Shown here: piece by piece, positions 44,193 through 44,656 of the stretch | Numbering within the stretch: the first letter of the stretch is position 1 | Layout: each line of letters starts with the position of its first letter | DNA from: Shigella phage SF1-1 | Direction: 5' to 3' (one strand) | Sequence record: PQ571307 | DNA: 64,000 nt | Program-made: the position numbers and the translations under genes | Notes under the pieces: generated by a model | Told to the model about the DNA's origin: nothing | What the model saw: only the letters and a program-made list of their open reading frames with translations | Databases searched by the model: none

Positions 44193-44414
44193 TTATTTTG
44201 TTACTACCATTTGGTACCCTGTTTCAATGTTAGTAAACACTGTTATCCCGTCCTGGCGTTCACTCATTAACATACAAGGCGCTAACATCCTTTCTACTGC
44301 CTTGCACTCATTGTAAACGGCGGTTATGTCTCCTGCGGCCTTGTCTTCTGTGGTGAATGTATCGTTTACGTAAACCTGACCAGCGACAACGGCGACAATA
44401 GCGAAAGTGATCAT
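44193..44414 (-). CDS. hypothetical protein (N-terminus MITFA)
   Basis: First 16 nt of the ORF are identical to those of the 44489 gene. Confidence 0.45.
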   Translation of the reverse strand: MITFAIVAVVAGQVYVNDTFTTEDKAAGDITAVYNECKAVERMLAPCMLMSERQDGITVFTNIETGYQMVVTK

Positions 44415-44419
44415 GATGT

Positions 44420-44488
44420 TTCCTTGTTAGTAGTGGTTTCTCTTCTCTATAGCGCCTTATAATGGGCGCTATAACGAAAAGTCAACGA
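44420..44488 (-). repeat. PeSL-like cassette 4 (variant, hairpin overlaps the -10)
   Basis: TTGACT, 17 bp, then TAGCGCCC-attataa-GGCGCTA. Confidence 0.4.
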
Positions 44489-44656
44489 TTATTTTTTAAG
44501 GCTTAAAGTGCCTAGCTTATCAGCGTGACGCAGACCAGGGAAGATCCATTTTCCTGATTCATCTTTTACAGGCGCTTTAAAAGTAGCGCCCAGGTTGGCG
44601 GCGTTAACTTTACGTGCAACGTTGCGAGCGGCTTCACGGGTAGCGAAAGTGATCAT
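44489..44656 (-). CDS. hypothetical small protein (N-terminus MITFA)
   Basis: 55-aa ORF downstream of a cassette; not in the ORF track. Confidence 0.35.
   Translation of the reverse strand: MITFATREAARNVARKVNAANLGATFKAPVKDESGKWIFPGLRHADKLGTLSLKK

Follow-up and report, generated by a model that had tools for sequence, protein, structure and literature searches.

Two adjacent early genes of Shigella phage SF1-1, called A and B here, start with the same five codons, and these codons are probably independently inherited N-termini that coincide, not the scar of a crossover. The window, the whole stretch of DNA that was analyzed, comprises 64,000 nucleotides (sequence record PQ571307), and coordinates refer to it. 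The N-terminus of each gene would have been inherited vertically: MITFAI would represent the conserved first beta-strand of family A, and MITFAT one state of the variable N-terminal tip of B, just before the conserved helix TREAARNVARKVN, with the two tips happening to coincide in the lineage of E. coli phages. The likeness upstream of the two starts probably derives from a generic early-gene leader that has a purine-rich SD, an A-rich spacer and ATC. Almost every gene of the array to which A and B belong carries its own cassette of a sigma-70-type promoter and a hairpin. Gene turnover at the locus is real, and the recombination behind it falls in repeated non-coding parts (the AT-rich edge with the -35, the cassette end 3' of the hairpin, and the leader from SD to ATG), with whole single-gene modules being inserted, deleted or replaced and the ORFs staying intact. 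That the coincidence of A and B is non-causal, and which recombination pathway acts, we infer.

By its sequence, the window comes from a phAPEC8-like myophage (Phapecoctavirus, Stephanstirmvirinae), a group of E. coli myophages with genomes of about 150 kb. A 3-kb stretch around A and B has matches in 207 phage records, the best of which is Phapecoctavirus at about 94% identity. The two genes are within a run of 17 consecutive minus-strand genes of 48-183 aa at 42.7-48.8 kb, and the spacers of this array, 74-97 nt long, have repeated motifs in each. When tested in PHROGs, five of five array genes fell in families of unknown function, and there was no Pfam match above threshold. An Rfam scan of 42.0-49.5 kb also matched no family. 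Gene C (43761-44114, minus strand, 117 aa) has its own class-1 cassette, CTGACA-16-TAAACT followed by a stem-loop (the cassette classes are described below). In phi92-like phages the gene C homolog comes directly after B, and A is absent. Upstream of B, a 70-aa gene (44748-44960, minus strand) has a sub-threshold Pfam match to Endonuclease_7 (E = 0.015, 15.7 bits versus a cutoff of 23.6). Its homolog is annotated as "phosphoribosylpyrophosphate synthetase" in some records, which looks like annotation carry-over. The early-gene array is flanked by six copies of 18-nt near-palindromic repeats (ATGAGAATGATTATCATT-like) at 41444-42478 and 49521-49628, three of which are spaced 29 nt at 49.52-49.63 kb, and no convincing genes are seen at 41.9-42.6 kb. 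Judged by their sequence, the repeats could be operator- or origin-like sites.

Gene A (44193-44414, minus strand) is an orphan early gene of 73 aa that begins MITFAIVAVVAGQ... and reads MITFAIVAVV..., and gene B (44489-44656, minus strand) is a basic orphan early gene of 55 aa that begins MITFATREAARNVARKVN... and reads MITFATREAARN.... The initial annotation held that the two genes begin identically (MITFA) and then diverge, and this is borne out. Both starts have the same 16 bases, ATGATCACTTTCGCTA, which together with ATC before the ATG make up an exact block of 19 nt (ATC ATG ATC ACT TTC GCT A), located at 44399-44417 for A and at 44641-44659 for B (both minus strand). Downstream of the block the sequences of A and B are unrelated. 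Alignment around the two starts, the check proposed along with that claim, shows identity running 13 nt into the coding sequence, beyond the RBS and the ATG; identity limited to those two would have counted against the initial reading. The two copies of the block are 242 bp apart, and they account for both exact copies of the 16-mer in the window. A near match with two mismatches (209-224, minus strand) was discarded, being inside a plus-strand ORF and at no gene start.

Of the 134 gene starts in the window, the second-best pair agrees over 12 nt. The A/B match was singled out after the fact. When codons were shuffled among genes position by position, a maximum prefix of 16 nt or more had P = 0.006 for any pair in the window, and P is roughly 1e-4 if the pair must be adjacent. 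Given the same amino acids, the same codons have P of about 0.018 (codon usage of this gene array). All four synonymous choices match between A and B, and TTC is a minor Phe codon in the array (24%). As a product of pure chance in this one window, the match is unlikely. The identity does not continue from the block into a shared cassette upstream. The 75-90 nt preceding the two genes, initially described as similar cassettes, belong to two different classes and are alike only in the purine-rich SD and the spacer.

A and B are unrelated families. In PHROGs, A belongs to phrog_25390 and B to phrog_13689, both of unknown function, and a Pfam search with the two proteins found no match. Profile-profile comparison of A with B (hhalign) gave a probability of 1.2%. 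The AlphaFold model of A (pLDDT 79.5) has the order beta-beta-alpha-beta-beta-beta, in which residues 3-10 (TFAIVAVV) form strand 1, and the model of B (pLDDT 75) has a short N-terminal strand and then a helix at residues 7-19. A fold search of the PDB with these models returned no significant match for either. The possibility that A and B are tandem paralogs or deep homologs is ruled out by the hhalign result together with the differing orders of predicted secondary structure.

The starts of the two families have been followed in relatives. Family A is present in 75 phage records and in 11 protein clusters. In a 12-sequence alignment of diverse members, M1 I2 T3 F4 A5 I6 are invariant, and in some Klebsiella phages MVTFAI replaces MITFAI. 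In Cronobacter phage CR9 (Vequintavirinae), A starts ATGATCACTTTCGCA (MITFAI) and a B homolog is absent. Family B is present in 129 phage records, phi92-like Justusliebigvirus included, and the phi92-like B starts with the identical ATGATCACTTTCGCTACC (MITFAT) despite the absence of A. Other B starts are MITFT (phiWec181, IMG/VR 3300014004 and P0003), MITCA (nepoznato), MITMN, MIAMN, MIAMT, MISMN and MIIMN (Klebsiella phages and metagenomes), MKFAT, MKFTT and MKLAT (metagenomes), MKLNDLMFAT (a Logan contig) and MNTFK (Citrobacter Tr1). Every one of these N-termini is followed by the conserved TR[ED]xARN. The B N-termini vary in step with the B clades, as defined by a tree of about 50 residues that is weakly resolved: F[AT]T recurs in three clades, one of them the outgroup-like Tr1, and the Klebsiella clades have MIT as well. 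By codon-wise majority over three B lineages, ATG ATC ACT TTC is already ancestral. The MITFA of B is therefore native, without transplantation from A. Scans of IMG/VR added only 3 and 4 loci, and a large protein database added 11 and 14 clusters, which is enough for sampling N-termini.

Phage BI-EHEC (L020:834-914) has a frameshift that truncates B after 26 residues. The same phage has CACC in place of CATC before the ATG at both A and B, which could be either a genuine polymorphism or a sequencing error caused by the context beside the GATC site. Co-conversion as the source of this "cacc" at both genes was rejected on the grounds that ERZ1034969, OBRO01, ZCKP1 and 10C3 carry it at one gene only.

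The main rival to independent inheritance, which we regard as rather unlikely, is short-tract ectopic gene conversion or template switching between the neighboring translation-initiation regions, followed by erosion by point mutations. In its particulars, which we find no more probable, B was already M-I-T-F-x, and one or more events in the ancestor of the E. coli phages made 16-19 nt identical. The identity of four synonymous sites, with the minor codon TTC among them, would be expected under this scenario, as would the low probability of a chance match, and these phages do recombine at leader microhomologies of about 11-13 nt. In phiWec181 the similarity of A and B, leader included, is as high as 27/29 nt. 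However, where the two starts have changed, they have mostly done so separately. The 19-nt block is intact in 13 of the 22 genomes that carry both A and B (the E. coli-phage lineage) and broken in the other nine, by 1-3 substitutions that are separate in A or B (ATC/ATT, TTC/TTT/TGC, GCT/ACT). Codons 2 and 4 show no co-variation, the ATT and TTT variants being mostly discordant between A and B. Minor alleles at -1/-2 (att, acc) do occur at both genes, a possible hint of occasional short-patch conversion, concordant in 4 genomes when about 1.2 are expected but discordant in 7; the genomes behind these counts are phylogenetically non-independent, and the concordant alleles may stem from their shared ancestry. 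The lineages of Klebsiella phages, in which the two genes are equally close, have not been homogenized: A starts ATGGTTACATTTGCA and B starts ATGATCACAATGAAT or ATGATTGCCATGAAT, with no concerted evolution. One metagenomic contig has ATGATTACCTTTGCA for A and ATGAAATTTACTACC for B. Conversion also sits poorly with the phi92-like phages, in which B has the identical start without a copy of A.

A chimeric origin, in which one of the two genes captured its leader and first five codons from the other or from a common mobile cassette and the bodies were swapped behind a constant 5' end, appears highly improbable. It would account for the unrelated sequence that flanks the identity on both sides, and a real start-codon junction is present at the locus (see below). 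Repeated leader swaps cutting into the first codons could also explain the unusual variability of B at its very N-terminus, ahead of F[AT]TRE (MIT-, MK-, MKLNDLM-, MN-). However, when the 32-nt leader plus five codons was used as a query against 50,697 phage records, the coding part was found on A and B only, and on no third gene. The other matches to the 32-nt query, in rV5-like phages, end at ATGA and correspond to the generic leader, ...AAGAGGAAAACATCATGA. Thus the alternative genes that had been anticipated behind the same 5' coding end come down to A and B themselves. Furthermore, A has an invariant N-terminus that belongs to its first beta-strand, the F[AT]T and MIT of B are found in B lineages with different or no A neighbors, the upstream cassettes are of different classes, and no junction maps inside codons 2-5. 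The remaining idea, that the block AUCAUGAUCACUUUCGCUA is a shared cis-acting RNA element (a repressor, RNase or sRNA site, or a translation-enhancing start) kept by selection, appears highly improbable as well: synonymous sites are kept in both genes in many genomes and the block has overlapping palindromes (ATCATGAT, TGATCA) and a GATC site, but it is not kept in the Klebsiella, Citrobacter or metagenomic lineages of either gene, it has independent substitutions in 9/22 genomes, non-synonymous ones included (F to C, A to T), the remaining early genes of the window lack it, and Rfam gave no match.

The claim that the shared first codons mark a recombination junction is accordingly unsupported. 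Each family keeps its N-terminus without the other gene (CR9 for A, the phi92-like phages for B), the N-terminal codons are not discordant with the rest of the gene, the B start grades through variants, the two starts drift independently, and the cassettes are of two classes. With the starts probably inherited independently, evidence for recombination at the locus is to be found in the non-coding sequences.

The cassettes of class 1 are the common unit, found in 12 of the 17 spacers, that of B among them. The order of elements in this class is stop codon, A-rich stretch, TTGACA-like -35, 16-17 nt, TAnnnT -10, about 10 nt, and a GC-rich stem-loop (GGCGG...CCGCC), followed by a purine-rich SD, an A-rich spacer, often ATC, and then ATG. 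The class-1 cassette of B (44657-44747, minus strand, including the SD/spacer aagagaagaggaaaatatc) has the -35 TTGCAA at 44737-44742, a 16-nt spacer, the -10 TAAACT at 44715-44720, and the stem-loop GGCGGCGGAATGGTCCACCGCC in the 5' leader at 44681-44702, all on the minus strand. The class-2 cassette of A (44434-44485, minus strand) has, on the same strand, the -35 TTGACT (44480-44485), a perfect 9-bp hairpin, TATAGCGCC/GGCGCTATA, with the -10 box in its loop (44448-44473), and the conserved 3' end GAGAAGAGAAACCA (44434-44447). It is followed by the gene-specific leader of A, ctactaacaaGGAAACATC, which contains the SD (44415-44433, minus strand). The last bases of this leader, GGAAACATC, together with ATGA, are the microhomology that joins an rV5-like module, X, to A in other phages.

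The class-2 hairpin was 100% paired in 13 diverse copies drawn from E. coli, Klebsiella, Citrobacter, Cronobacter and metagenomic phages, with compensatory changes in 6 of the 9 pairs, and its pairing score was reached by 0 of 500 shuffles. The ten best promoter-like sites in 42.6-49.0 kb, with a threshold of at least 10/12 matches to TTGACA-16/17-TAnnnT, are all on the minus strand, each in an intergenic spacer before a small gene. A simple promoter scan called no promoter for A or B in the window, in the case of B because the hexamers are too weak (8/12, counted from the sequence), and in the case of A because the -10 box is inverted. In three phages, that of the window together with dw-ec and ZCKP1, the class-2 hairpin of A has the form ATAGCGCCCATTATAAGGCGCTAT, which exactly reverse-complements the ATAGCGCCTTATAATGGGCGCTAT of 15 other relatives; the TATAAT of the loop therefore reads ATTATA, and the scan calls no promoter. 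The same kind of flip is seen in the class-1 hairpin of B, which is GGCGGTGGAATAGCCCACCGCC in phi92-type phages versus GGCGGTGGGCTATTCCACCGCC in IMG/VR 3300045988. In the databases, several gene models start at ATGs inside the hairpins or loops of the cassettes, such as MYHIERRNGFP..., MGAIEKRN... and MVPATTKRE... (L003:21-305, L008:1692-2129, and proteins P0010, P0013 and P0014). Such models have spurious N-terminal extensions that read through the stem-loop.

The interval from the B stop to the A start has 0, 1 or 2 extra genes in relatives, five different genes in all. The B-to-A spacer (44415-44488) was compared with loci L001, L005, L006, L009, L011, L019, L021, L022 and L023, and it is an insertion hot spot for X, W, V, Y and Z in different phages. 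In the window, phAPEC8, dw-ec and others, the interval is 74 nt and has the class-2 cassette only. Gene X (72 aa) occupies it in Schickermooser, phiWec181, tuntematon, nieznany and 10C3, gene W (53 aa) in IMG/VR 3300014004 and Ga0129312, gene V (50 aa) in KP13-16 and two metagenomic contigs, gene Y (81 aa) in phi1_175008, and Y together with Z (57 aa) in KP2025. The left junction of every insert is directly after GAGAAACCA, the 3' end of the class-2 cassette. X and W have a common leader, ATCACCA[GC]AAAGAGAGAAA, and diverge 5-7 nt before their start codons. Of the two V-less forms, one has the class-2 hairpin with the A leader (Logan SRR16287788) and the other a class-2' hairpin (FBKp34); going by their sequences, they would be the expected outcome of crossovers at different points of both flanking cassettes. 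Homology between phi92 and the window stops at the B stop codon and at the AT-rich/-35 edge.

The X module, made up of one leader, the ORF, 80 nt of 3' flank and another leader, matches the ORF166 region of rV5 (Vequintavirinae) at 90-91% identity. The module is about 310 nt long (L001:940-1252 in Phapecoctavirus versus L024:701-1011 in rV5) and has unrelated genes on both sides. Homology extends as far as the ATGA of the gene that follows, namely ORF165 (MKRLDQ...) in rV5 and A (MITFAI...) in phages of the Schickermooser type. The sequence GGAAACATCATGA is common to the leader of window-type A and that of rV5 ORF165. A four-way alignment places the right junction of X in a microhomology of 11-13 nt, the switch being within GAAACATCATGA at the A start codon. 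This is therefore a genuine start-codon junction, but one located 5' of codons 2-5. The mapped junctions are all 5' of the ATG or at it, and none is inside codons 2-5. The proposal that the cassettes mediate gene swapping is thus retained in part: the shared codons are no evidence for it, but the inserts are bounded by the cassette 3' end or the SD-to-ATG leader.

The 80-nt flank 3' of X, TAGCATGAATTGCTAAAGAC...TATTATCAACTAAT..GAAACGAAAC..AAAGAGA, is 76-82% identical to an intergenic stretch with an annotated promoter that follows the VRR-NUC gene in unrelated siphophages of 45 kb. These phages belong to Drexlerviridae/Braunvirinae (SU57, AN_ECEAS, DTL and others), and AN_ECEAS has two copies of the X-like flank (L001:1170-1248 for the X flank; L025:501-584; L026:501-583 and about 740-837).

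Units of promoter and stem-loop that recombine are known from T4-like phages, where they are called PeSLs (promoter-early stem-loops; RB49/phi1, PST and nt-1; Arbiol et al., 2010, PMC2839356; Comeau et al., 2014, PMC4122927). A PeSL is a repeated unit of promoter, stem-loop, SD and ATG in hyperplastic regions (PMC2839356, PMC4122927). Crossovers have been located in the stretch from the -10 box to the ATG, in the loop, or at the AT-rich edge, and mini-circles form (PMC2839356; PMC4122927). Action of the stem-loop as a transcription terminator or attenuator is a further PeSL trait. The units of the present array likewise comprise an AT-rich edge, a sigma-70-like promoter, a GC-rich stem-loop, SD and start codon, and they too cluster among small orphan genes. 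As with PeSLs, single-gene indels or replacements between relatives are bounded by the units, here after GAGAAACCA or at the SD leader, the ATG or the -35 edge, and in both systems the crossovers leave the coding sequence out. Overlap of hairpin and -10 box, as in class 2, is among the layouts common in PeSLs. There are differences as well. The described PeSL hosts are T4-like myoviruses, whereas this array is in Phapecoctavirus (Stephanstirmvirinae). Unlike in most PeSLs, the class-1 stem-loop is downstream of the -10 and so at the 5' end of the RNA made from the unit itself. The sequence after it is A-rich and not U-rich, the hairpins of the array having no downstream U-tract. In structure and turnover, the array appears to be PeSL-like, outside the described T4-like set. 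A search for PeSLs together with rV5- or phAPEC8-like phages found no paper linking them in the literature library covered, and a broader search for Phapecoctavirus, promoter and hairpin gave irrelevant papers only. In the rV5 paper, promoters and terminators are all that is listed, and some promoters of this array are annotated in the phAPEC8 record.

Morons (Hendrix-Juhala) and boundary or linker sequences (Susskind-Botstein) are older notions of modular phage evolution. They also enter the discussion of the T4-like elements (PMC2839356). Like morons, the genes considered here are single genes with their own promoter inserted between resident genes, an example being the X module, about 91% identical between rV5 and the Schickermooser-type phages. 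Unlike morons and linkers, the junctions are not random but fall in a short conserved leader (11-13 nt of microhomology), and there is no U-tract terminator. Small hairpin-loop inversions, the flip-flop of palindromic stem-loops, are best known from plastid non-coding DNA. The perfect hairpin that is exactly reverse-complemented in some relatives resembles these inversions, but the loop in the array carries the -10 box, so a flip would be predicted to alter the promoter.

These results suggest some caution in scans that use the sequence only, since comparison with relatives showed a striking identity of 16-19 nt at two gene starts to be a poor guide to recombination. A bolder reading of the locus, which we hold to be doubtful, is that in rV5-like and phAPEC8-like phages the gene start as a whole (SD, spacer, ATG and first codons) is a portable linker for recombination. 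That single-gene modules would cross phage subfamilies through crossovers in start-region microhomologies of 11-30 nt is equally doubtful, and so is the corollary that the A/B block is both a product (by short-patch conversion) and a substrate of exchange. If this reading is true, the PeSL idea would reach beyond promoters to translation-initiation regions and first codons. The rV5-like and phAPEC8-like phages are widely used in phage therapy and biocontrol. The microhomology junction makes the PeSL-type shuffling model directly testable in these phages. To the known cases of modular shuffling the locus adds a good one, compact and well-sampled and outside the T4-like phages, in which single-gene modules have been inserted, deleted and exchanged across subfamilies.
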